A DNA stretch of 12,956 bases from a virus (taxonomy: Duplodnaviria; Heunggongvirae; Uroviricota; Caudoviricetes), in IMG/VR virus record IMGVR_UViG_2531839252_000007; one strand, given 5' to 3'. Positions 1,761 to 12,956 of the stretch are shown here, piece after piece. A program made the translations under genes and the position numbers. Each line of letters begins with the position of its first letter. Position 1 is the first letter of the stretch. A model generated the notes under the pieces. That model ran no database searches. It saw only the letters and a program-made list of their open reading frames with translations, and was not told the DNA's origin.

Positions 1761-2312
1761 ATGAAAGATATTACAAACATCGCAGTGACTGGCGAAGATG
1801 GCGTGGTGACGTATGCCGACGGCAGTAAAGAGGAGTTCCAGTGCAGCGGAACCGTTGCGACCATCATTGCAAGTCTTGCAACGACACTCGAGAAAGAACG
1901 CAAAATGCGCATCGCCACCGGCGACCGCCTGCGCCGCATGTACACCCGCGACAGTGATATGATTTCCCGCGGTTTGAATGGCACGTCTGCTACTTCCACG
2001 GCACCGACAGCAATGAATGCTGAGTTCATGCGTCTGGTACGTGCCGTAGCGCCGAAATACGATTCAGCACTGCCCGACGCCGACCCGCGCATCGTTGCGC
2101 TCGATGTGCTGCGCTACGCCCCTGCTGAGGCGTTCAGCGCCGTACACCCTACCCCAATGTCAGAAATCCAGCTGGATCAGGCTATCGATATACTCGAGCA
2201 GGTTGGCGACTACATGAAAGCAAACAATATCGCTCCGAAAATAATTTCTACAGGAGACGCAATCCGCAGCATCAATGCTGACAACGCCACCTTCTGGGGC
2301 AAAAAACACTAA
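1761..2312 (+). CDS. Hypothetical protein (183 aa), first gene of cargo cassette 1
   Basis: Long ORF with a GAGG Shine-Dalgarno about 9 nt upstream of the ATG. No family recognisable from sequence. The antisense ORF 1664-2092 is judged spurious. Confidence 0.75.
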   Translation: MKDITNIAVTGEDGVVTYADGSKEEFQCSGTVATIIASLATTLEKERKMRIATGDRLRRMYTRDSDMISRGLNGTSATSTAPTAMNAEFMRLVRAVAPKYDSALPDADPRIVALDVLRYAPAEAFSAVHPTPMSEIQLDQAIDILEQVGDYMKANNIAPKIISTGDAIRSINADNATFWGKKH

Positions 2313-2318
2313 AGAGAT

Positions 2319-2513
2319 ATGAGCATGCCTATCTATGACCCGAAATTAGCCGCAGGCAACCCACAGCGCGCCCACCGCCCGATGCTGACCCGTCAGGATC
2401 TTGAAGCGGCAAAGGCACGCAATAACTTCGATCGCCAGAGTCGCAACCTGCAGCAACTCAACGAATCAAATGCACGGTTCTGGAGTGAACAGAATGAGAA
2501 AGCCAAACGTTAA
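2319..2513 (+). CDS. Small hypothetical protein (64 aa)
   Basis: Begins 6 nt after the upstream stop and is basic and Q/R-rich. Its 3' end overlaps the next start by 20 nt. Confidence 0.5.
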   Translation: MSMPIYDPKLAAGNPQRAHRPMLTRQDLEAAKARNNFDRQSRNLQQLNESNARFWSEQNEKAKR

Positions 2514-2670
2514 GCCGGTCCTGCTGTCCGCCGAGCAGATGCAGGCCATACGCAACATTCAGGAACGTGAACGCCAGCGCTCCAATCTCGGCGTCGCTCC
2601 CACCGTTCACCAGATTGCCCGCGGCCTCATGGCTAAGGCTCTGGCCTCACTGGCAAGCGAGGGCGTGTAA
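2494..2670 (+). CDS. Small hypothetical protein (58 aa), possible DNA-binding or adaptor protein
   Basis: The ATG at 2494 has a GGAG Shine-Dalgarno 8 nt upstream. The track ORF 2401-2670 is trimmed to this start because the longer version would overlap the previous gene by over 100 nt. Its stop overlaps the next start (TAATG). Confidence 0.55.
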   Translation: MRKPNVKPVLLSAEQMQAIRNIQERERQRSNLGVAPTVHQIARGLMAKALASLASEGV

Positions 2671-3341
2671 TGGGCGCCATTCACCAGATATATGAGCAGG
2701 AAATGTTCTATAACTGGATAGGCGATGGTAAACGATGTGTAGCATTCCACGAAGCGGGCCATGCAGTAGCCGCATGGCTTATTCGCTTAGATATGCAGGT
2801 TATCGCCATTATGGATGAATCCGGCTACGTTGCTGGCGAACATGTACATGAAGCCCAGTGTTTGGGCGTTGTTAAACACGGCATAATCCACAACCACGAT
2901 CTCAGGCGTTTGCGGGAGAGTAAATCTGGTGTAGTTGGGCACGATGGCAAAGTTATCCCTTTCATACGCTACTACGCGGAAGGTATAAAACGCGATGCAA
3001 CAAAGGCCGCTTTTGTAGCCCTCGCTGGACCAGTAAGCGAAGCCCTTTACGAAAATAACGAAATTTTCAATAAAAAGTATTCACTCCCTCACCGCTATGA
3101 CATGGCTAACGTAAATGACATGCTCGATTTAATATGTGCCACGGATAAGCAAATTAACAGGAAGTTAATGCTTTCTAAACTTGTTGAAAAGACCAAATTC
3201 CTCATGACTCAATACTGGCCGGAAGTAGGAAAAATAGCGCATTTGCTTGAGCGGGATAACATTGTTAATGGGCGCGATGTTAGCTCGCTAATCGGCCTCA
3301 ACGTCATTGACCGGGCAACGCCATTTTTGCTGGCGGAATAA
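2670..3341 (+). CDS. Standalone zinc metalloprotease-like protein with HEXXH motif (FtsH / M41 protease-domain-like)
   Basis: AFHEAGHAVAAW motif at residues 26-37 (HEAGH at nt 2748-2762) resembles the FtsH active-site helix. Downstream LAGPVSEALYEN resembles the FtsH LAEE region. No AAA+ ATPase or transmembrane segment is present. Start is coupled to the upstream stop. Confidence 0.75.
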   Translation: MGAIHQIYEQEMFYNWIGDGKRCVAFHEAGHAVAAWLIRLDMQVIAIMDESGYVAGEHVHEAQCLGVVKHGIIHNHDLRRLRESKSGVVGHDGKVIPFIRYYAEGIKRDATKAAFVALAGPVSEALYENNEIFNKKYSLPHRYDMANVNDMLDLICATDKQINRKLMLSKLVEKTKFLMTQYWPEVGKIAHLLERDNIVNGRDVSSLIGLNVIDRATPFLLAE

Positions 3342-3417
3342 CCCCTGCCCGAGCTCATTCGACGATTTATTCCTCGGCGGGTAAGCTATACCGGTCTACC
3401 TAACTGCGAGCACAAGG

Positions 3418-4476
3418 ATGATGAATAATTTAATCAATCGCATTGCTTTAACCTTTCTAGCGTTAGTACTCACAGGCTGCACTGCGGGGAAAATCGATCC
3501 CGCAAAAGCGTTAACACAAATGCATATCGTCAAAAGTGATGACTATAAGAAGCGCCCCGGCTGGCCTGCGTTGGTTCGTCTGGGTACTGACGATTGTGAG
3601 ACATACAAAAGTGGCGGCGGTAGCCTCTTTAAGTGGGACGGGCTGACGTGCAACGACAAAAGCATTATCCTGGCGGTTAATAGCAAACCACAGACCATTC
3701 CAGTGTTCTACGCTGCTTACCATGAATACGGGAGCTATGGGGTCGGGGAACTATCCAATTTTGACAATAGCACCCGAACAGGTGAGGAAGCCTCGAAGAT
3801 TCTGGTTAACCTGACCACAGTATTGAACAATCCGGCAAAAGTTGACGCTATCTATGCTGACTATGAAAAGGATCGTTGGAGCATGGGACTTGGTACAGTC
3901 AACGAAAGCGATTTTAAAAAGAGCCTGGCTACTTTTGCTCAGGAACGGGATAAGCTTGCCTCTGAATACCATAAATTACGTGACGCAAACCAAAAGAGAT
4001 ACCTAGCTGAACGGGACGAACGAATCAAACGTGAGAAAGAAGAGGCCATGGCCTCTGAAAAAACGATTGATCTCGTGTTATGGCAGAATCCAACAGTTGA
4101 GCAACAGATGGTTGTTGACGCTCTGCACACTATTAAATTCACAATAAGAAACGATGGCGTGGCATACGCTAACGGTCGCCGATTTATGTCAATTGCCGGG
4201 ATGGAATATCTCAGGAATAGCCTAGCTCTGAGTATGGAGTCATGTTCAGACGCTGGGGCATATGTTGGTGATACGGCATTAAATCGCGCATGTATTCAGG
4301 GCTTGGCGAGGAACATTGTTGAGTGGGGGAAAACCGCCAACGACCGTTCTATTTCAGACAGAGCATGGAACGCAGCCGCAATGGATGGCAGCATTAACTA
4401 CAACCCAATCAAGTATGAAATCCTGTTTTCACATTGGGCAGGAATGGCCCGTGTCTACTCTGCTCGTGGATATTAA
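3418..4476 (+). CDS. Lipoprotein (352 aa) with signal peptide, lipobox and charged coiled-coil-like segment
   Basis: The N-terminus MMNNLINRIALTFLALVLTGC has a hydrophobic core and an L-T-G-C lipobox. An AAGGA Shine-Dalgarno lies upstream. The middle region KLRDANQKRYLAERDERIKREKEEAMASEK is coiled-coil-like. Confidence 0.85.
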   Translation: MMNNLINRIALTFLALVLTGCTAGKIDPAKALTQMHIVKSDDYKKRPGWPALVRLGTDDCETYKSGGGSLFKWDGLTCNDKSIILAVNSKPQTIPVFYAAYHEYGSYGVGELSNFDNSTRTGEEASKILVNLTTVLNNPAKVDAIYADYEKDRWSMGLGTVNESDFKKSLATFAQERDKLASEYHKLRDANQKRYLAERDERIKREKEEAMASEKTIDLVLWQNPTVEQQMVVDALHTIKFTIRNDGVAYANGRRFMSIAGMEYLRNSLALSMESCSDAGAYVGDTALNRACIQGLARNIVEWGKTANDRSISDRAWNAAAMDGSINYNPIKYEILFSHWAGMARVYSARGY

Positions 4477-4526
4477 ACACTGCGCTTCGAACTGATAAAT
4501 TTAAGCTTAATCAGTACATTACTGTT

Positions 4527-4552
4527 AGCCCGCATTTTAGCGGGCTTTCTTT
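4527..4552 (+). terminator. Rho-independent terminator after the lipoprotein gene
   Basis: Stem AGCCCGC(4527-4533), loop ATTTTA, stem GCGGGCT(4540-4546), followed by TTCTTT. Confidence 0.7.
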
Positions 4553-4569
4553 AGTTGAGCTTTGTACAA

Positions 4570-4585
4570 GATGTAAATTTACATC
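4570..4585. repeat. Perfect 16-bp palindrome GATGTAAATTTACATC
   Basis: Self-complementary and AT-rich. It sits between convergent genes, about 35 nt past the stop of the minus-strand peptidase gene. It could be a minus-strand terminator hairpin or a binding site. Confidence 0.5.
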
Positions 4586-4618
4586 CTGATTATCCAGTGC
4601 GCCGTAAAAGCTGGCAAT

Positions 4619-5731
4619 CTATTTAACTAAACGTAAATGTGACGGGCGTATCCCCGATTCCTGGGTACTCGATTTTCCACCATTGATAGCTTCCATAAAG
4701 AAGCTGTTACTGAAAGTAAGTGCACTCGCTTCGTCCGCAGGTAACCTCAACTGCTCGAGAATATCTCCCCTTTTAACGCCTTTGCTGCGTAGGGCTGAAA
4801 ACACTTTATCCAGCACTAATGACTTTTCACGTTCAGCAATCCCTTGAGGCTCACTCGTACGATATCCACGGCGAGCAAGTTCTATCGATAGCTGTCGATA
4901 ATGCCATTCGGTAGATAAACCGACATCAAACGTACGGCGCACCAAAGCCGCCAATGATACCCGCCAGTTCTTTTTTAACGAGATGAGTAGATCAAGCGAT
5001 GGCATTCTTGGCACTAAAGCTAAAATACTACGCTCAGGCATCAAAAAGGCCGATGCGAATCGATCTGCATCCTGCTCAGCTTGGCGGCCGTTGTTAGTTG
5101 AATGTTTATGGAGAACCAAGTGCCCCAGTTCATGAGCTGCATCGAATCGACTACGCTCCGGCGTTTTCATTGTATTCAAAAGCACAAAAGGTTTTTCATC
5201 CATCCAGAAAGAAAAGGCGTCTACTTCAATACAATTTTCCGCGAGAGAGAACACACGGACCCCATTAGCTTCAAGAAGATGGACCATGTTAGAGATGGAT
5301 AATTCACCTATCCCCCAACTTTCTCTAACCACGCGAGCAGCTCGCTCAGGCTCAGAATAACCATCGAAACTACAATCAGGTACATTAGGTTTAGGAAGCT
5401 TAAACTGCCCGTCAATCCAAGCTGATAGCTCTTGCGCGAGCTTTCCGGCTCCGAGTGCTGAGTCCCTTTTCTGTGCCGTCAACTTTGTCATTGCACGGAA
5501 ACTAACGGCTTCTGGCGACAGAGTAGGTACATCCCTGTCGAGGAAGAACTCAATCGGATAGCCCAGAACAGCAGAAATCCGTTCCATGGTATCGCTGGCT
5601 ATGGCATCAAAAATCCCTGCTTTCTCGTAATTCGAAATCGTCTTACTAGTCAATTCTGTAGCTTCAGCTAAAGCTCTTTGTGTCAGGCCTCTCCGTTCTC
5701 TGGCTATACGTAAACGCTCTGAATTAAACAT
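4619..5731 (-). CDS. XRE-family HTH fused to ImmA/IrrE-type (M78, COG2856-like) zinc metallopeptidase, with C-terminal extension of about 130 aa
   Basis: N-terminal HTH LTQRALAEATELTSKTISNYEKAG. HELGH at residues 200-204 (nt 5120-5134, verified by reverse-complement translation). Followed by EQDADRFASAFLMP, the characteristic ImmA/IrrE E-x-x-A-x-x-F-A-x-x-x-L-x-P signature. Starts 9 nt after the upstream gene stop. Confidence 0.9.
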   Translation of the reverse strand: MFNSERLRIARERRGLTQRALAEATELTSKTISNYEKAGIFDAIASDTMERISAVLGYPIEFFLDRDVPTLSPEAVSFRAMTKLTAQKRDSALGAGKLAQELSAWIDGQFKLPKPNVPDCSFDGYSEPERAARVVRESWGIGELSISNMVHLLEANGVRVFSLAENCIEVDAFSFWMDEKPFVLLNTMKTPERSRFDAAHELGHLVLHKHSTNNGRQAEQDADRFASAFLMPERSILALVPRMPSLDLLISLKKNWRVSLAALVRRTFDVGLSTEWHYRQLSIELARRGYRTSEPQGIAEREKSLVLDKVFSALRSKGVKRGDILEQLRLPADEASALTFSNSFFMEAINGGKSSTQESGIRPSHLRLVK

Positions 5732-5740
5732 GGTGCATAT

Positions 5741-6460
5741 TTAGCCTGTTTTTAAAATGTCGAGATCGATATCCGGTGTAAACTGCGGTACATCACCGTT
5801 CTGAACAATAGGGTCAGGTTGATGAGGAGCAATAATTAAACGTGTGGAGAAGGCATTAACTACATTCTTGTTATTGTATGAAATCGGGCGTGAAAGCTCA
5901 GCTCGGATCCCCACGCGCTCATCCCCGTCAATTTCATAAAAATCGTAAAGTAAAAACCATAAGTCCAGTCCGATTTTATTCGGTAGCAGTGGTATAACAT
6001 CACCTTCCGGCATGTCTAAATCCAGCTTAAGCTGGCTATCATCCAGGATAAGCTCACCCTGACCCGGGGTGTTATTATGGATTAACCCCATCAGCTCACA
6101 AGTAAAATCACCTTTCTTCATGCGAGACTCAGGAAATCCATGAACCAAACCTGTCTGATCACACCCCCGGCAGAGGTAAAGGGCAACTTTATCACTTACA
6201 GTCAGTTCAACATTTCGCAGGGACAGACGTTTGTAGCCTTTCGGAGCCAGAATGTCGCGGGCTGCACTCACCCCCTCACCATAGAAATATTGCCCACGTG
6301 AGGTCTTGGGGTGATTCTGAGTCGTCGAATAACGACCAGACAAGCCACGCTCAAGAATACGCCTGAGATCACTTTGGCTCAGATTCAGGGACTGCAGGTA
6401 GGATTCAACATCGTCAGGATCTGCCAAAACAATGGTTTTTGCGAGATTATGAGAGTACAT
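5741..6460 (-). CDS. Hypothetical protein (239 aa), first gene of minus-strand cargo operon
   Basis: ATG at 6458-6460 with an AAGAGG Shine-Dalgarno 8 nt upstream. No recognisable family. Co-oriented with, and 9 nt upstream of, the HTH-peptidase gene. Confidence 0.8.
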   Translation of the reverse strand: MYSHNLAKTIVLADPDDVESYLQSLNLSQSDLRRILERGLSGRYSTTQNHPKTSRGQYFYGEGVSAARDILAPKGYKRLSLRNVELTVSDKVALYLCRGCDQTGLVHGFPESRMKKGDFTCELMGLIHNNTPGQGELILDDSQLKLDLDMPEGDVIPLLPNKIGLDLWFLLYDFYEIDGDERVGIRAELSRPISYNNKNVVNAFSTRLIIAPHQPDPIVQNGDVPQFTPDIDLDILKTG

Positions 6461-6485
6461 CGGAAAAGCCTCTTATATATTTTCT

Positions 6486-6520
6486 ATTTTTTATACCTCA
6501 TTTGAGGTTTAAAAACAAGA
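6486..6520 (-). promoter_or_regulatory. Candidate promoter of the minus-strand operon with palindromic operator in the spacer
   Basis: On the minus strand: -35 TTGTTT (plus 6513-6518), 17-bp spacer, -10 TATAAA (plus 6490-6495). The spacer contains the inverted repeat ACCTCA-tt-TGAGGT (6495-6508). Confidence 0.45.
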
Positions 6521-6666
6521 AAATCACTGTATAAAATCTCAGAGATAATCGACAGATTAGAGAGTATTATCCATATTGAGGCTATCCCGACGGGGAGAAA
6601 AGCGGCTACGCCTTGCCGCCTGCCTCCCCCATTATCTCAAGGCGGTGACGTGTAAGGCGAACGTGC

Positions 6667-7485
6667 ATGAGTGGTTTTGTTTTTCCTTTCGAGTTTCAAC
6701 CAGTGCCAGAGGCATTGGCAATCCTGAACGACATGGATATTGCTCCCTTTGAAATAACCGAAAAACACCTAGAAAGCTGGTGGGCGGAGGGGAAAATTCA
6801 ACTGTGCTTTAACTGGGGTAGATTCTGGAAAGCTGGCTTAGCCGACGAACTGGCAAAAACAGAAGGCTACGCAGAATTAGGGGCGAAAGAAAAGATCACT
6901 GCGCTCAATGCTGTATCCGCTTCCCCCGAGGCTAACATCAGTCTTGTCGTGCCATCTTACAGCGATTTAAGTTTTATCTGGCGCGGGCATAGCGACGATC
7001 CACTCCCCTGTATCGAGGCCAAACCCTACGGGCTTGATCAACCTTTTGTTATCAAACGCGTTCCTCACACCTGCGAGGACTATTGCGATTACGGTACGCA
7101 GCATTGGGAAAAACTTTACCATTCGCTGCACATTTCGAGTATGGTGCTGCCGCGTGCTGAAGCTGAAAAAATTTATTATCTCTGCAACCCTACAGCTATT
7201 CCAGGCATGGACGAAAAGACGGCATCTGCAGTATCTGCGAAAACGGTTAACTATCTGGCCACTGCTTTAAAAGCTTTTATTCACATCCATTACGGGGCTG
7301 ATGTGGCGGACAACCTGCGCAAACATCTTGAGGATCCCACCAGTGATATACGGAAAGACTTTGCGAATAAAGGGATCAAAGCGCCAGGTGGAAAAGCGCT
7401 GGCCAGCCATCTGAAAAATATTCTGATTGAAGTTTTACCCGCGCTCGACAACGTCGATGTGGAGAGTGACGCTGGTAATACATAA
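6667..7485 (+). CDS. Hypothetical protein (272 aa), divergent from the minus-strand operon
   Basis: Coding-like ORF with AAGG about 9 nt upstream of the ATG. Contains a Cys/His-rich patch HTCEDYCDYGTQHWEKLYHSLH. No recognisable family. Confidence 0.7.
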   Translation: MSGFVFPFEFQPVPEALAILNDMDIAPFEITEKHLESWWAEGKIQLCFNWGRFWKAGLADELAKTEGYAELGAKEKITALNAVSASPEANISLVVPSYSDLSFIWRGHSDDPLPCIEAKPYGLDQPFVIKRVPHTCEDYCDYGTQHWEKLYHSLHISSMVLPRAEAEKIYYLCNPTAIPGMDEKTASAVSAKTVNYLATALKAFIHIHYGADVADNLRKHLEDPTSDIRKDFANKGIKAPGGKALASHLKNILIEVLPALDNVDVESDAGNT

Positions 7486-7547
7486 CCCCGGAACATTCCA
7501 TATATTCCGACGCATTAGAATATTCCAGAGCCCATCACCATAACCTT

Positions 7548-7581
7548 GCGATTACCTTCTCACTCAATAGCAGGTAATCGC
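7548..7581 (+). promoter_or_regulatory. Inverted repeat GCGATTACC/GGTAATCGC overlapping the alpA ribosome-binding site
   Basis: 9-bp arms at 7548-7556 and 7573-7581 with a 16-nt spacer. The right arm ends at the base before the alpA ATG. Three TATTCC-like repeats lie upstream at 7494-7526. Confidence 0.4.
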
Positions 7582-7794
7582 ATGAAATCGCAAACTTTCA
7601 CCTTTCCCACCAATGGCAACGCACGAGCCAAACAAGTGGCGCACTATCTTGGAGTGCATATCAGCACCGTATGGCGCTATGCAAAACGTCCTGATTTTCC
7701 AAAACCCCACCAGTTAACCGACGGCGTGACCGTCTTTGACGCCGCAGCTATTCGCCAATGGAACAAGCAAAAAACCGGGGGTGAGAATGCTTAA
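7582..7794 (+). CDS. alpA: AlpA-family (P4 Vis / CP4-57 AlpA-like) small HTH regulator or excisionase
   Basis: 70-aa product MKSQTFTF...VAHYLGVHISTVWRYAKRPDFPKPHQLTDGVTVFDAAAIRQWNKQ matches the AlpA/Xis-type pattern (LGVs.sTvWR...FP.P...W...I..W). An in-frame start also exists at 7546. Confidence 0.85.
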   Translation: MKSQTFTFPTNGNARAKQVAHYLGVHISTVWRYAKRPDFPKPHQLTDGVTVFDAAAIRQWNKQKTGGENA

Positions 7795-7848: not shown

Positions 7849-8043
7849 TCAGGCTTTCGGCTCAATACCCAGCCGCTGGAGTTCTTTGCGCCCCAAGGTT
7901 TTCATCCAATTAGCTAAACTCATACCTGCATCTCGTGCGGCGGCCTCGAATTGCTCTTTCAATTCTGGGGCGATCCTCACTTGGAAAGCTGGTGCCTTTC
8001 CCCTGCCTTTGGGCTGTTTATCACGCTGTATTACTGTTGACAT
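7849..8043 (-). CDS. Ribbon-helix-helix (CopG/Arc-like) small DNA-binding protein, likely repressor
   Basis: 64-aa product from M18 of the track ORF; the upstream AGG gives a better ribosome-binding site than the 8094 start. FQVRIAPELKEQFEAAARDAGMSLANWMKTLGRKEL fits a strand-helix-helix pattern. Divergent from the replication operon. Confidence 0.6.
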   Translation of the reverse strand: MSTVIQRDKQPKGRGKAPAFQVRIAPELKEQFEAAARDAGMSLANWMKTLGRKELQRLGIEPKA

Positions 8044-8177
8044 GTATGTACCTATTAAACTAAGATTCAAATCAATAGGTACGCACCTTAACATGTTAAG
8101 GTCAGAAAAGACAACGCCCCGTATGTGTTGCGAGCACTACGGGGCGTCTAACCAACAACGTTACGGAGACTAACGCT
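8044..8177. promoter_or_regulatory. Densely structured control region between the RHH gene and the replication operon
   Basis: Inverted repeat GTACCTATT/AATAGGTAC (8048-8056 / 8074-8082). Perfect 16-bp palindrome CCTTAACATGTTAAGG (8086-8101). GC-rich inverted repeat ACGCCCCGTA/TACGGGGCGT (8114-8123 / 8138-8147). Confidence 0.5.
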
Positions 8178-8378
8178 ATGGCTAAGCCGCAGTGTACCCA
8201 AACTCACCCCAAATATCAGTATCGTTTTATGGCGCTCGATCGCGCTGACCGCCAGGCAAAACCCTGCAAAATCATTGTTGAGGCCACCAGCGAGCACGAA
8301 GCGCGTAAAGTGCTGGCTCCTCACTACATCCTGTCACTGTCCGCCGTTTTGCCAGTTCAGGAGGTGAGCCATGTTTAA
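8178..8378 (+). CDS. Small hypothetical protein (66 aa), first gene of replication-module operon
   Basis: GGAGA Shine-Dalgarno 9 nt upstream. The operon is tightly packed. Confidence 0.65.
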   Translation: MAKPQCTQTHPKYQYRFMALDRADRQAKPCKIIVEATSEHEARKVLAPHYILSLSAVLPVQEVSHV

Positions 8379-9047: not shown

Positions 9048-9268
9048 TGCCACGCAAACATCGCTCATCAAGCAACCTGATCAAATTAATGGAACGCCAG
9101 AAAGGTATAGGGCGCGACGATATCCAGATCGCAGATAATCGCCCTACATTCATGCCGTACGAGCCGAACGGAACCTACGCCACAAACCGCCATACCCGCC
9201 GTATGCTACGCAAGCTCCACGGCATCCAGGCAAAAAGAATGTGTGATCTGAAAGGAGGTCAGAAATGA
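9047..9268 (+). CDS. Small basic hypothetical protein (73 aa)
   Basis: AGGGAGG Shine-Dalgarno upstream. TAATG start/stop overlap with the upstream gene and ATGA overlap with the primase gene. Confidence 0.65.
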   Translation: MPRKHRSSSNLIKLMERQKGIGRDDIQIADNRPTFMPYEPNGTYATNRHTRRMLRKLHGIQAKRMCDLKGGQK

Positions 9269-11679
9269 TTGGATTCGATCACCTGATGGAGCAGGGGCAG
9301 AAACGCACCCCTGCTCGTTTTACTGCAAATAGCTTTTCTGACCTGTGCAACGCTATTCTATCGCATCGTGTGCAAATTTCCATCACCCCAGAAATGACAG
9401 ATGAAGAGCGACGTAAGGAAAAGCAGAAACTGTACTGGTTCTCGGCAACTACCCAGCAGGACGGGCAGCGACGTAAACCCGAAAACATGGCACCGTGTGC
9501 TTTCGGTATGCTGGACATTGACGGCAGCACTCCCGGTGCAATCACAGCACTTGTACAGGTGTTCCGGCGATACTCAATGCTGGTGTACCAGACGGCCAGC
9601 TATACGGCGGATGAACCTCGTCTGCGTATTGTGTGCGAGCTTTCCCGAGCGGTTGAATCTGACTACCGCCGAGCGACAGGCGAATCCATAGAAACTTTGT
9701 TGATGCAGGAGGCTGGATTCTCATTCGCCAGCCTGGCGGATAAGAAAGCACGCTGGGAGAACGGCAGCGATTATGTTGTCTTTGACCGCAATGTATACGG
9801 CGCTCAAAGCTATTGCTACTGTCCACACTCTGGAGCGAAAGCCCAGAATTACGCGGGCGCGGTAATCGACGTAGGGGCGTTACCGGAACCCGCCCAGCTA
9901 CCAGCGAAGGCGGCCAAAAGCAAGGCAAAGAAACAGCGCCAGCGTGACGCCGCGGCGGTAATAGATGCTGATTTTGACGATCTGAGCGCCGGACCGGATA
10001 ACTTCCTTATCGCCGACCTGCGCAGCGCACTCTGGTTTCCCTCCATGCTGCAAAAGGCATGGGACAATGGGGCGTGGATTGAGCAGGGCTACCGCCTTGC
10101 ATCTCTCAAAGGCACCGATTTTGAGGACGACGCGCGGCAGCTGTGGGTCGAGTGGTCATTGACCGCGGCGGATGGCTGGCCTGATGAAGAACTTGATGAA
10201 GTCGCAGCACAACGCTGGGATGGTCTCGCCCCTGACAAAACCAGCTATAAAGCTATTTTTACTGATGCTCAGGCGCAGGGGTGGAATAATCCGAGCACAT
10301 GGCGAGCAAAGGCCGCGTACATTGAGAAAATGGCCCCCAGCACACGCGGTGAACTGCTAGCGCAATATTACGGCAACGTATGCCTGAAAGCTGATGGCAA
10401 CATGGTTTATCACTATACCGGGCAGGGGTGGGAGCACATCGCCGATGCCGAGTTGCGCCGCCAGCTTTCGCATATTTTCAAAGATAACGGGGTCCCCTTT
10501 ACACCGTACGAGGTTAAAAGCGCGATTGAGGCTATGGGAATGCTTCTGCCTTTAATGGGAGAAACTCCTCGTAACCTGATTGGCTTTGCCAACGGCGTTT
10601 ATGATCTCGAGGCGCAGCGATTCCGCCCCCACTGCCCAGACGATTGGCTGACCAGCCATAACGGCGTTGAATACACGCAACCGGTTAAAGGCGAAACCCT
10701 GAAAAACAATGCCCCAAACTTCTGGCGCTGGCTGCATCATTCCGCAGGGGGCGACTTCGACAAAATGGAGAGAATCAAAGCCGCTCTGTATATGGTGCTG
10801 GCAAACCGCTACGACTGGCAACTGTTCATCGAGGTTACCGGTGCTGGTGGCAGTGGTAAAAGCGTGTTCACGGGTATTGCACGTATGCTGACGGGCGAAC
10901 TACACGCCACCAGCGGCACAATGGAGGACATGGACACCGCGCGCGAACGCGCATCTTTTGTCGGCAAAAGCCTGATCACCCTACCCGACCAAGCAACATA
11001 TACGGGTTCCGGGCCGGGTATCAAGGCTATAACGGGCGGCGACGTGGTAAGGATCGACCCAAAGCACGAAAAGCCATTCCATACGGTTATTCGCGCCGTT
11101 GTCATCGCAACAAACAACGAACCTATGCGTTTCACCGAACGACAAGGCGGGATATCGCGGCGCCGGGTTATTTTCCCGTTTAACCATGAAGTGCCGGAGG
11201 CGGAACGTGATCCCCATCTGCTCGATAAAATTAAAGCCGAACTGCCGGTAATCGTCCGTGGTCTGCTGATTGACTTCGAACAGCCAGGCAAAGCCAAATC
11301 GCTACTTATCGCGCAGCGTGATTCAGCGGAAGCGCTGCAGGTGAAGAACGATAACGACCCGATGTATGGCTTTTGCTCTTACCTGCTAGGTTTGCCGAAT
11401 CCCGAGGGCATGTACATGGGCGATGGGCGCATGGCGCGAGAGCCACGCATCTACCTCTATCATGCTTATCTGGCCTATCTGGAAGCCTACGGTTATCAGA
11501 GAACCCCCACCCTGCCAAAGTTCAGCGGAGATTTACGGGACACGCTCAAAGCCTTTGGTATTACTCTGGACAGTAAAAAGAGTAAAAAGGGCAAAAGATA
11601 TAACGTCAATTTGTCTGACAGGGCACAAGAATGGCTGGGAGAAGACGAACTCTCAGCTGTGCCCGACACATTGCAGTAA
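9265..11679 (+). CDS. Replication primase/helicase (N-terminal AEP/prim-pol-like domain, P4-family/D5-like SF3 helicase domain)
   Basis: 804 aa with an AAAGGAGG Shine-Dalgarno. Walker A VTGAGGSGKS at residues 526-533 (nt 10840-10863) sits in the middle, as in P4 alpha and D5-type helicases. N-terminal MLDIDG (nt 9508-9525) is an acidic D-x-D motif consistent with an AEP-type primase. Confidence 0.85.
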   Translation: MIGFDHLMEQGQKRTPARFTANSFSDLCNAILSHRVQISITPEMTDEERRKEKQKLYWFSATTQQDGQRRKPENMAPCAFGMLDIDGSTPGAITALVQVFRRYSMLVYQTASYTADEPRLRIVCELSRAVESDYRRATGESIETLLMQEAGFSFASLADKKARWENGSDYVVFDRNVYGAQSYCYCPHSGAKAQNYAGAVIDVGALPEPAQLPAKAAKSKAKKQRQRDAAAVIDADFDDLSAGPDNFLIADLRSALWFPSMLQKAWDNGAWIEQGYRLASLKGTDFEDDARQLWVEWSLTAADGWPDEELDEVAAQRWDGLAPDKTSYKAIFTDAQAQGWNNPSTWRAKAAYIEKMAPSTRGELLAQYYGNVCLKADGNMVYHYTGQGWEHIADAELRRQLSHIFKDNGVPFTPYEVKSAIEAMGMLLPLMGETPRNLIGFANGVYDLEAQRFRPHCPDDWLTSHNGVEYTQPVKGETLKNNAPNFWRWLHHSAGGDFDKMERIKAALYMVLANRYDWQLFIEVTGAGGSGKSVFTGIARMLTGELHATSGTMEDMDTARERASFVGKSLITLPDQATYTGSGPGIKAITGGDVVRIDPKHEKPFHTVIRAVVIATNNEPMRFTERQGGISRRRVIFPFNHEVPEAERDPHLLDKIKAELPVIVRGLLIDFEQPGKAKSLLIAQRDSAEALQVKNDNDPMYGFCSYLLGLPNPEGMYMGDGRMAREPRIYLYHAYLAYLEAYGYQRTPTLPKFSGDLRDTLKAFGITLDSKKSKKGKRYNVNLSDRAQEWLGEDELSAVPDTLQ

Positions 11680-11700
11680 CTTGTAAAAAATCACCAAGAA

Positions 11701-11722
11701 CCCCGTAAATCGGGGCTTTTGT
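11701..11722 (+). terminator. Rho-independent terminator after the primase/helicase gene
   Basis: CCCCG stem, TAAAT loop, CGGGG stem, then CTTTTGT, starting 22 nt after the stop. Confidence 0.7.
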
Positions 11723-11741
11723 CTATTTATTAGTCTGAAAG

Positions 11742-11852
11742 GGTGAACAGGTGCGCATACCTTAACAAAGCTGTTCACTCTAATAATTTTCTTTAATATC
11801 AGTACACTACCCGCAATAAGTGAACAGATGGACGGGGTGAACACTTCACACC
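11742..11852. repeat. Second iteron cluster (TGTTCACC family); putative crr-like cis replication region
   Basis: GGTGAACA at 11742-11749 and 11836-11843 (perfect reverse complements of TGTTCACC). TGTTCACT at 11772-11779 and AGTGAACA at 11819-11826 (one mismatch each). Degenerate CTTCACACC at 11844-11852. Confidence 0.6.
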
Positions 11853-12338
11853 TATAGCGCGAAATATTTTAATATTTGCAGTTGAATTGCAATCCTTGAA
11901 AACAGAAACGCGTAGCAAAACGTAGAGTGCTGAAAAAATTTTGTTGGGGAGCAGTTCAAACTGCATGAGCAATTTTCAAGCACTCCTCTTTGTCTTGTAC
12001 CCAAGACTGTACCCAATAGAAAAAATAGAAAATAAAAACTCAGCAATAGCAGCGATTGGTGCCACTACTCAACATTCAGATTCATAAGCGACATATCTCC
12101 GTAGGCCGTTGTTAATTACAGCGGCGCTACGCATATAGTTTCGTCCTCATATTTATTTACTCCATACTTTTTCTAATGCATTTTACTTATCACAAAATCA
12201 GAAAAATGCATTCTTACTACAGAAAATAGCAATTTCACATAACTACAAATTATCAATCTATTCTCTCCTTAAAAAATCTCAATCGTGACAATGCGCACAA
12301 ATCGCTACCCTTCCAGACAGATTTTTAGGGAGAGAACC

Positions 12339-12956
12339 ATGCTGTTACACATTTTGTATTTGGTTGGCATTACTGCCGAAGCCATGACGGGGGCGCTGGC
12401 GGCCGGACGACGGCGTATGGATACATTTGGCGTAATTATTATTGCGACCGCCACGGCAATTGGCGGAGGGTCAGTGCGCGATATTCTGCTGGGCCACTAT
12501 CCGCTCGGCTGGGTCAAACACCCGGAATATGTGATTATTGTCGCTACCGCCGCAGTACTCACCACTATCGTTGCTCCTGTAATGCCTTACCTGCGCAAAG
12601 TGTTTCTGGTGCTCGATGCGCTCGGACTGGTGGTCTTTTCTATCATTGGCGCACAGGTTGCACTGGATATGGGACACGGCCCGATCATTGCCGTTGTCGC
12701 AGCTGTGACGACCGGCGTATTTGGCGGCGTTTTGCGCGATATGTTCTGTAAACGCATCCCGCTGGTATTCCAGAAAGAATTGTATGCCGGTGTCTCATTT
12801 GCCTCCGCCGTGCTGTACATCGCGCTGCAACACTATGTTTCTAACCATGATGTGGTAATTATCTCCACCCTGGTATTCGGCTTTTTTGCCCGCTTACTGG
12901 CGCTACGCCTTAAGCTGGGATTACCGGTCTTTTACTACAGCCACGAAGGACACTAA
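12339..12956 (+). CDS. yicG: UPF0126 family inner-membrane protein (YicG/YadS-like); probable host backbone gene
   Basis: 205-aa product from the internal ATG at 12339, which has an AGGGAGAGA Shine-Dalgarno; the track ORF starts earlier at 12285. Highly hydrophobic, with the duplicated GGGSVRD / FGGVLRD motifs typical of UPF0126. The gene symbol is from memory of E. coli YicG and is tentative. Confidence 0.85.

Follow-up and report, generated by a model that had tools for sequence, protein, structure and literature searches.

An open reading frame (ORF) of 272 aa, which starts with an ATG at 6667 and ends at 7485 on the plus strand of the virus record IMGVR_UViG_2531839252_000007, raises the question of whether its product belongs with the operon that is transcribed away from it or with something else. 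The window, i.e., the whole analysed stretch of 12,956 nucleotides (nt), is a satellite-like island of ~12 kb that resembles the phage-inducible chromosomal islands (PICIs), carries a P4-type primase and is integrated adjoining yicC. A first-pass annotation, made from the letters alone, described the gene as an orphan sharing a control region with a minus-strand operon of a helix-turn-helix (HTH) protein and a peptidase, and suggested either a third component of that operon or an independently regulated cargo gene. The ORF listing bears out the gene itself, the protein of which we call X, and the operon is RosmerTA (RmrT/RmrA, 4619-6460). Our sequence comparisons favor a different role, in that X is probably a DNA-binding regulator belonging to the island backbone, which would be expressed through a gated RNA leader, would use its C-terminal domain on repeats just past its own stop codon, and would act before alpA.

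Protein X and the repeats that follow its gene

X is regarded as a real gene because homologue clusters of similar length exist. A word-indexed search gave 24 such clusters at 34-94% identity, all apparently from Enterobacterales, and an exhaustive profile search gave 94 representatives at the 50% level (E <= 1e-3). The label of orphan therefore does not hold, even though the family is rare. X had no match in Pfam, PADLOC, NCBIfam or PHROGs, scans of 90 relatives against these four libraries gave nothing relevant, and a sequence profile search of the PDB with X returned nothing below an E of 0.27. When X was compared by tblastn with phage genomes there was no match, and among plasmids the only match was pArsFIN15 of Arsenophonus. 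The C-terminal peptide of X, used as a query, found related loci in 2 species genomes only. As far as sequence can tell, X lies outside all described families.

In RefSeq, the protein is listed as the hypothetical protein WP_000012878.1 of Escherichia coli O55:H7 DEC5B, whose locus (L001; comparison loci are given by handles of this form) is 100% identical to the window across 6461-7500. Nine complete genomes of E. coli carry the gene (>=99% identity), in RefSeq as a hypothetical protein and always at a single chromosomal site, from yicC to dinD/yicG. Seven of these nine genomes (L002, at 9207-10034, and six more) have an X allele that is 9 nt longer and encodes 275 aa (WP_000012879.1).

X consists of an N-terminal domain (residues 1 to ~188; 6667-7230, plus strand) and a C-terminal domain that we call type A (SAKTVNYLATALKAFIHIHYGADVADNLRKHLEDPTSDIRKDFANKGIKAPGGKALASHLK...; 7231-7485 including the stop codon, plus strand), the latter being the proposed DNA-specificity domain. 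The N-domain has a conserved beta-alpha-alpha-beta motif (~8-50) and an "LVIPxxELEK" element (~158-173), separated by a variable insert, and all members of the family have in common the patterns "Y.L..AA..L......DL...W..G.I.LC" and "LVIP..ELEK" as well as the variable insert. Conservation within the family is highest in the C-terminal domain, which reaches a predicted local distance difference test (pLDDT) score of 90-97 in an AlphaFold model built from 84 sequences (pLDDT 84 overall), which supersedes an earlier 19-sequence model that was poor in this domain (pLDDT 66). Structural matches to the model were weak and mostly to winged helices of the MerR/AlpA/Xis kind, and this weak signal suggests a MerR/AlpA-like winged helix as the core of the N-domain. 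The AlpA/Xis/MerR profiles (PF05930, PF12728, MerR) matched neither X nor any of the 90 relatives. X also differs from AlpA/Vis/Xis and MerR-type proteins in having no Pfam match to them (hhalign Prob 17.6%), in being four times larger with an insert of ~110 residues, and in that specificity apparently follows the C-terminal domain.

The Cys/His-rich patch that the first-pass annotation had pointed out (HTCEDYCDYGTQHWEKLYHSLH) is present in X. However, H133, C135, C139 and H145 are kept in one N-domain subtype only (HFCEYCD..H in P0009/P0022, HLCETCDQGTEH in P0042). A metal site common to the family was rejected, as the cysteines are absent from the other N-domain subtypes, and judged from the alignment the patch would be a subtype-specific site at most.

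The spacer between X and alpA comprises 96 nt, in which repeats are followed by an inverted repeat that abuts alpA. Three GAATATTCC-type (GGAATATTCC-type) repeats are found at 7490-7526 and are clustered only here in the window: GGAACATTCC at 7490-7499, ATATATTCCG at 7500-7509 and AGAATATTCC at 7517-7526. We propose them as operators of X. The repeats overlap a -10-like TAGAAT at 7516-7521.

Pairwise blastn showed X to be a mosaic in which the C-terminal domain and the downstream repeats are exchanged as one block. The window and L010 have 6573-7197 (95%) and the DNA from 7532 onward in common, while the C-terminal domain of X and the distal spacer differ. With the locus of E2348/69 (L013) the window shares the RNA described below and, at 98%, everything from 7538 onward, so that alpA is near-identical; the two differ in the C-terminal type of X and in the repeats (GAGTTTTCATAACTCC x2 in L013). 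With L004 the common part is 7234-7547, i.e., the C-terminal domain and the repeats, and here the alpA type differs. These breakpoints show that the repeats travel with the C-terminal domain of X and not with alpA.

The same association extends to distant relatives. Two to three related repeats were found just past the stop codon in all nine type-A loci examined (the window, L004, L007, L009, L012, L135 on pArsFIN15, L136, L137 and L138). Among the distant type-A relatives (21-27% identity where measured), four of five keep GAATATTC(C) or a GGAA/TTCC palindrome, the exception being L137 with two copies of the variant ATATTACGAA. The post-stop repeats are TTGGAATATTCCAAA x2 in L012, TTGGAATATTCCGAAA x2 in L136, and CGGAATTTCCG with CCGGAAGATTC (variant GGAATTTCC) in L138, and pArsFIN15, which is without alpA and without the RNA, has GAGAATATTCCAAA and TGGAATATTCGAATATTCCAAAA. 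Type-B C-terminal domains (L010, L013, L119 and L034) accompany GGAGTTTT..AAAACTCC-like repeats, other C-terminal types carry other repeats, and some type-C loci have terminator-like hairpins. At the level of sequence, the C-terminal type thus co-varies with the repeats that follow it. A 10-bp palindrome that is kept in the same place in otherwise unalignable DNA looks like a cognate operator, and we consider its retention, or that of a close variant, in most of the distant type-A relatives to be the decisive point in the comparison.

Other readings of the repeats were rejected. They are not AlpA sites, as they change where alpA is near-identical (L013) and stay where alpA has changed (L004). 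Nor are they terminators, as the type-A repeats form no stable hairpin and no terminator is predicted on the plus strand, and a role of X as an excisionase acting at att does not agree with repeats that lie kilobases from the island ends. The second element of the spacer is an inverted repeat (TGCGATTACCTTCT/AGCAGGTAATCGCA; 7547-7582, plus strand; 14 nt, 93% complementary) that abuts the alpA ATG and contains the alpA Shine-Dalgarno sequence. It is kept with this alpA type in L003, L010, L013, L007 and L009 and is part of the alpA module rather than of X. It could be an autoregulatory site of AlpA or a translational hairpin.

The int-alpA RNA leader

The spacer between the divergent genes measures 206 bp (6461-6666), from the rmrT start at 6460 to the ATG of X at 6667, as previously noted. 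When the upstream regions are aligned, similarity between islands begins abruptly at 6578. To the left of this position, 6461-6577 is specific to the cassette on the RosmerTA side and has no homology to the sister islands. To the right, 6578-6666 is a conserved leader that travels with the X gene, and the DNA from 6578 to the ATG is ~75-95% identical between islands whose X proteins share only 36-45%. What had been described as a shared control region is therefore the junction of two modules; the description is right in its geometry but not in kind, as one half belongs to the cassette (6461-6577) and the other is the leader of X (6578-6666).

Just upstream of the rmrT start there is a 22-nt AT-rich inverted repeat (6479-6500/6503-6524; 86% complementary, 2-nt gap), which is a candidate operator for the HTH domain of RmrA. 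Two pairs of promoter-like hexamers on the plus strand, TTTAAA-18-TAAAAT (6508-6537) and TCGACA-17-CATATT (6549-6577), may be used as promoters, and a repeat search of the spacer gave a stem formed by GGGGAGAAAAGCGGC/GCCGCCTGCCTCCCC (6592-6629).

The leader contains a match to a known RNA family, the int-alpA motif (RF02996 in Rfam; Weinberg et al., 2017; PMC5737381). The match lies at 6575-6642, reaches 46.5 bits where the gathering score is 35.8 (E 3.8e-7), and covers the model full-length (positions 1-71). The RNA lies between int (1-1260) and alpA (7582-7794), the X genes of L003, L004, L009 and L010 likewise have RF02996 directly on their 5' side, and in L014 the RNA begins 8 nt past the int stop codon. 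Rfam classes the family as "Gene; sRNA", and we know of no function assigned to it.

On the plus strand, the RNA forms a three-way junction (6578-6626) of P1 (6578-6582/6622-6626), P2 (6585-6588/6593-6596) and P3 (6602-6606/6615-6619), with CUA, GAAAAG and CUG as its conserved bases. The P3 loop CGCCUU (6609-6614) pairs with AAGGCG at 6639-6644, hereafter site 1, in a pseudoknot spanning 6609-6644. The exact repeat CGCCTTG (6609-6615) / CAAGGCG (6638-6644) that the earlier reading had picked out as an inverted repeat of the intergenic region is indeed there, and it is the pseudoknot of the int-alpA RNA. A 7-nt repeat might by itself arise by chance, but this one is backed by compensatory changes in relatives (CGCCUG/CAGGCG in L004, CGCCUUA/UAAGGCG in L009) and by loop and tail being complementary across 36 versions of the RNA, in 34 of the 36 distinct-loop representatives. 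A -10-like TATTAT (6565-6570, plus strand), read from the sequence, lies 7 nt before 6578, and -10-like hexamers are found just upstream of P1 at a like distance in several other loci, the good ones 7-10 nt before P1.

For a wider survey, IMG/VR was scanned with a 16-base junction pattern and a covariance model was made from eight island copies; ~80 further RNA instances were recovered. Covariation was examined in 56 distinct sequences, with an alignment that was fitted to our own model and in which P3 barely varies, being partly fixed by the search pattern; here, 94.7% of cells were paired and 161 cells had changed on both sides compared to 50 in shuffles. The covariation score was reached by none of 500 shuffles, 11 of the 14 pairs had changed on both sides, and slid controls were 38-53% paired. 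Folding of 6570-6675 as a single sequence gave a z of ~0 on both strands, and the RNA structure therefore draws all its support from comparison.

The P3 loop has a second complement in the leader. This site 2, AAGGCG at 6654-6659, is at the same time the Shine-Dalgarno sequence and ends 7 nt before the ATG at 6667. A short hairpin (6648-6666, plus strand), whose stem register in the window is ambiguous, presents site 2 in its loop. In the survey, site 1 lies 10-17 nt after P1, and both sites are present in 28 of the 36 distinct-loop representatives, compared to 15% of mismatched loop/tail controls. The start codon lies 1-12 nt (median 6) past site 2 in 26 of these 28 and is AUG in 25, and the minimum-energy fold places site 2 inside a hairpin loop in 22 of the 28. 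Loop sequences vary widely among the instances, and both target sites change along with them. Additionally, 70 of 73 RNA instances are followed on their own strand by an ORF that begins 4-41 nt past the model match. RNAs of the int-alpA type are common in viral contigs, and in the IMG/VR loci L015-L134 the genes directly behind them encode HNH, HNH_3 (+AP2), Rha, Dam, DnaT-like, class-V aminotransferase and CapR-domain proteins, to which X is to be added. Given such diverse downstream genes, the int-alpA RNA is a general leader device that is not specific to X.

Since the P3 loop can pair either with site 1 or with site 2, i.e., the ribosome-binding site, the leader most likely gates the translation of X in cis. 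The two-site architecture is established by comparison of sequences, and from it we infer a switch in translation. In the mechanism that we propose, the X mRNA would start at or near 6578 with the int-alpA RNA, and pairing of the P3 loop with either site 1 (pseudoknot) or site 2 (ribosome-binding site) would gate the translation of X. A limited check of the open-access literature found no description of such a cis-acting two-site reading of int-alpA. The element of the window has the same three-stem junction, junction bases and int/alpA setting as the Rfam family, but while the family is listed as an sRNA, the element here is a 5' leader whose P3 loop has two alternative targets including the ribosome-binding site. 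A parallel is found in the rep genes of IncI-alpha and IncB plasmids (PK-repZ/PK-repBA in Rfam), whose translation is set by a pseudoknot in which a distal hairpin loop pairs beside the ribosome-binding site. However, these are unrelated in sequence and structure, and the leader of the window differs from them in its three-way junction, its two target sites and in having no known antisense partner.

The listing of int-alpA as an sRNA in Rfam might instead suggest that 6578-6666 acts in trans as a small RNA, or as a DNA site, in a way unrelated to the translation of X. The position of the motif in L014 and L034, a few bases past the int stop codon and without an obvious promoter, would also agree with this. 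Even so, we find it unlikely, since 70 of 73 instances have a same-strand ORF start 4-41 nt further on and the second loop complement coincides with the Shine-Dalgarno sequence, the median distance to the start codon being 6 nt. Moreover, -10-like hexamers stand just upstream of P1 in several loci, and no terminator is predicted on the plus strand after the motif.

Proposed role of X in front of alpA

For Gram-negative PICIs, alpA serves as master activator, and its expression is set off by the helper phage via a route that has not been identified (PMC6092414; PMC11773190). No repressor has been reported for these islands (PMC6092414). In at least 13 independent loci with differing left neighbors, a relative of X lies directly 5' of alpA in the same orientation, and small ORFs and a P4-type primase come after alpA. 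This placement next to alpA is nearly universal, with pArsFIN15 as the exception, and an AlpA-like ORF directly follows X in every X locus that carries the RNA leader.

X can be pictured as a two-part DNA-binding protein, with a variable N-domain built on a winged-helix core and an exchangeable C-terminal domain for specificity. The type-A C-terminal domain would recognise the GGAATATTCC-type repeats at 7490-7526 ahead of alpA, and X on those sites would govern either the transcription that runs into alpA or that of alpA itself, probably by acting as a repressor or roadblock. The variable N-domain is then the candidate input, or sensor, part. Repression or a roadblock is the simplest sign of control because the repeats in the window overlap the -10-like TAGAAT at 7516-7521.

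Some findings speak against this picture. The linkage between C-terminal domain and repeats could partly reflect common recombination blocks, and while the conservation among distant relatives argues otherwise, it does so without proving binding. An overlap of the repeats with a -10-like hexamer is seen in the window, and one with a promoter is not evident in L012 or L136; therefore, repression, roadblock, activation and autoregulation are indistinguishable. pArsFIN15 has X and repeats without alpA or the RNA, and L012 and L138 are without the RNA, which means that the RNA, X with its repeats, and alpA are separable. RNA of the int-alpA type is likewise found ahead of other, unrelated genes (HNH, Rha, Dam and others). 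Lastly, Xre-type HTH or M78 genes often lie to the left of X, in 6 of ~9 contexts, and cross-talk with the circuit of X is conceivable.

The proximity to RosmerTA led the first-pass annotation to suggest that X is a third component of this system or is co-regulated with it, the RmrA HTH on the spacer controlling both divergent promoters. The divergent layout with its 206-bp spacer is in line with this, and so is the 22-nt inverted repeat at 6479-6524, which lies between both starts and could be an RmrA operator; further, E2348/69 and L004 have a RosmerTA of another subtype that is equally divergent, and in L003 and L010 the gene of X comes after an HTH+M78 pair. Still, we consider this explanation very improbable. 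No HTH-M78 genes accompany X in L007, L008, L012, L014, L135 and L138, no PADLOC model matches X, and homology begins only at 6578, as expected of a spacer that joins two modules. Across the other genomes looked at, X and the operon do not consistently occur together, which is the finding that the annotation had itself named as counting against its proposal, and relatives of X lie beside other cassettes or directly after int. Millman and colleagues are said to have described RosmerTA in 2022 as a two-gene system, and in the window this two-gene core is made up of the neighbors RmrA and RmrT, not of X. Thus, RosmerTA is a physical neighbor of X, but X is not one of its components and is without it in most contexts. 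X is a gene of the island backbone (RNA leader, X, alpA, primase) and independent of RosmerTA.

This independence is also what remains of the suggestion of an independently regulated cargo gene; the cargo part fails, since X belongs to the conserved regulatory and replication backbone. Accessory cargo at the edge of a defence hotspot, e.g., an anti-phage or superinfection-exclusion effector, would suit a gene with extreme mosaicism and rapid evolution, both frequent among arms-race genes, that borders a hotspot of varied defence and toxin cassettes and that has no recognised regulatory domain. On the other hand, X keeps a fixed position relative to alpA across divergent islands, and cargo genes are not normally fixed at one backbone position across genera. 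One motif family follows the type-A C-terminal domains in nine of nine loci, the core is apparently winged-helix-like, and PADLOC gives no match, which together leave the cargo explanation with a low probability. Slightly lower is that of a site-specific DNA binder without a regulatory role, in which X would serve in recognition of a packaging site (small-terminase-like), in partition or as a replication accessory, and the repeats would be pac/cos-, centromere- or iteron-like. This agrees poorly with X heading an early/regulatory operon rather than standing with late or replication genes, with just 2-3 repeats placed directly before alpA, and with a specificity that follows the C-terminal domain and not the putatively winged-helix-like N-terminus.

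As a DNA-binding regulator in front of alpA, X would by analogy most resemble the master regulators of satellites and phages that have exchangeable specificity modules, i.e., Stl of the Staphylococcus aureus pathogenicity islands (SaPIs) and CI-type repressors. Like these, X is mosaic, element-encoded and located beside the key activator or early operon, its apparent specificity domain swaps together with repeated palindromic sites, and its variable part could sense the helper phage. Unlike them, X shows no sequence or fold relation to Stl or CI, is co-directional with alpA at a distance of 96 nt, and has its proposed sites downstream of its own gene. The divergent transcription from the repressed operon that is a hallmark of Stl and CI is not found here, as X and alpA share one strand.

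A further-reaching proposal, which we put forward tentatively and hold to be possible but rather doubtful, has one part on the protein and one on the leader. X would be the helper-phage-responsive alpA repressor of this Gram-negative PICI-like class, with the C-terminal domain holding the GGAATATTCC-type operators and the hyper-variable N-domain as the receptor of a helper-phage protein. Separately from this, the int-alpA RNA would act widely in phages and satellites as a translational gate that is riboswitch-like or binds a factor, in which the conserved junction binds a common ligand or a host or phage factor and the P3 loop chooses between a decoy and the ribosome-binding site. If this is true, X would be a functional analogue of SaPI Stl with an unrelated fold. 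The X family is a testable candidate for helper-phage sensing, or the hold and release of alpA, in one class of Gram-negative satellites, which includes the yicC islands of enteropathogenic E. coli E2348/69 and of O55:H7 and O45:H2 strains. The comparisons also give a new reading of the int-alpA RNA, from an sRNA as listed in Rfam to an apparent cis-acting leader before many phage and satellite genes.

The island and its interchangeable left flank

With int, alpA and primase, a small size and no phage structural genes, the island agrees in its genes with a Gram-negative PICI, and no packaging module was found in it. It starts with the tyrosine integrase int (1-1260; ORF list and Pfam), followed by hypothetical genes (1761-4476; ORF list) and, on the minus strand, RmrA with its HTH and M78 peptidase (4619-5731; PADLOC E 1e-149) and RmrT (5741-6460; PADLOC E 1e-52). 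After X (6667-7485) come alpA on the plus strand (7582-7794), an AlpA-family regulator (Pfam PF05930, E 7.7e-7; RefSeq WP_000842055.1), small ORFs including an Icd-like gene (8178-8378), and the P4-family primase (9265-11679; Pfam). According to RefSeq, yicG lies beyond the primase gene.

The left neighbor of X differs between islands. RosmerTA of another subtype holds the same divergent position in E2348/69 (L013) and L004, and a CapH/CapP-like HTH + M78 pair is found in L003, L010 and L011. DUF3289 + DUF943 are found in Erwinia (L007), Mig-14 in a decayed island of Izhakiella (L008), and an HTH gene with a TumE-like pair in L009. The neighbor is the integrase itself in L014 and L138, a capsid-like gene in L012, and RelE/HigA on pArsFIN15 (L135), a 16-kb satellite-like plasmid of Arsenophonus. 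A cassette hotspot is thus located just left of the RNA leader, at ~4480-6577 in the window and with counterparts in L003, L004, L007, L008, L009, L010 and L013. It contains one of two RosmerTA subtypes, CapH/CapP-like HTH+M78, DUF3289+DUF943, a TumE/HVO_A0114-like pair, or Mig-14. RosmerTA is merely the occupant of this hotspot in the present strain, and that it is an interchangeable cassette matters when it is cloned with its "native" flanks.

Two of the comparison loci have features of their own. pArsFIN15 (NZ_CP038627.1, Arsenophonus nasoniae, 15,977 bp) encodes terminase, portal, prohead protease, HNH, VapE and a replication initiator, and resembles a capsid-forming satellite. L012 has matches to the isrK and C4 antisense RNA families at 10375-10600 within the alpA-primase operon, reminiscent of RNA immunity of the P4/P1 type; the window has no isrK or C4 antisense RNA match.

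At the right end of the island, ~1.1 kb including dinD is apparently gone between the primase gene and yicG (11680-12340) compared to DEC5B (L001), as judged from coordinates only. Between alpA and the Icd-like gene, an ORF on the minus strand (7849-8094) has a weak HicB match. Of the sigma-70-like sites in the region, the best (TTGACA-18-TAAGAT) lies at 8037-8066 on the plus strand, before the Icd-like gene at 8178-8378. Among the hypothetical genes to the left, 2670-3341 encodes a 223-aa protein with an HEAGH motif and weak, sub-threshold matches to M41/M50 peptidases, and 3418-4476 encodes a 352-aa protein with a lipoprotein-like N-terminus (LTGC). The two genes are conserved in sister islands as part of the backbone.

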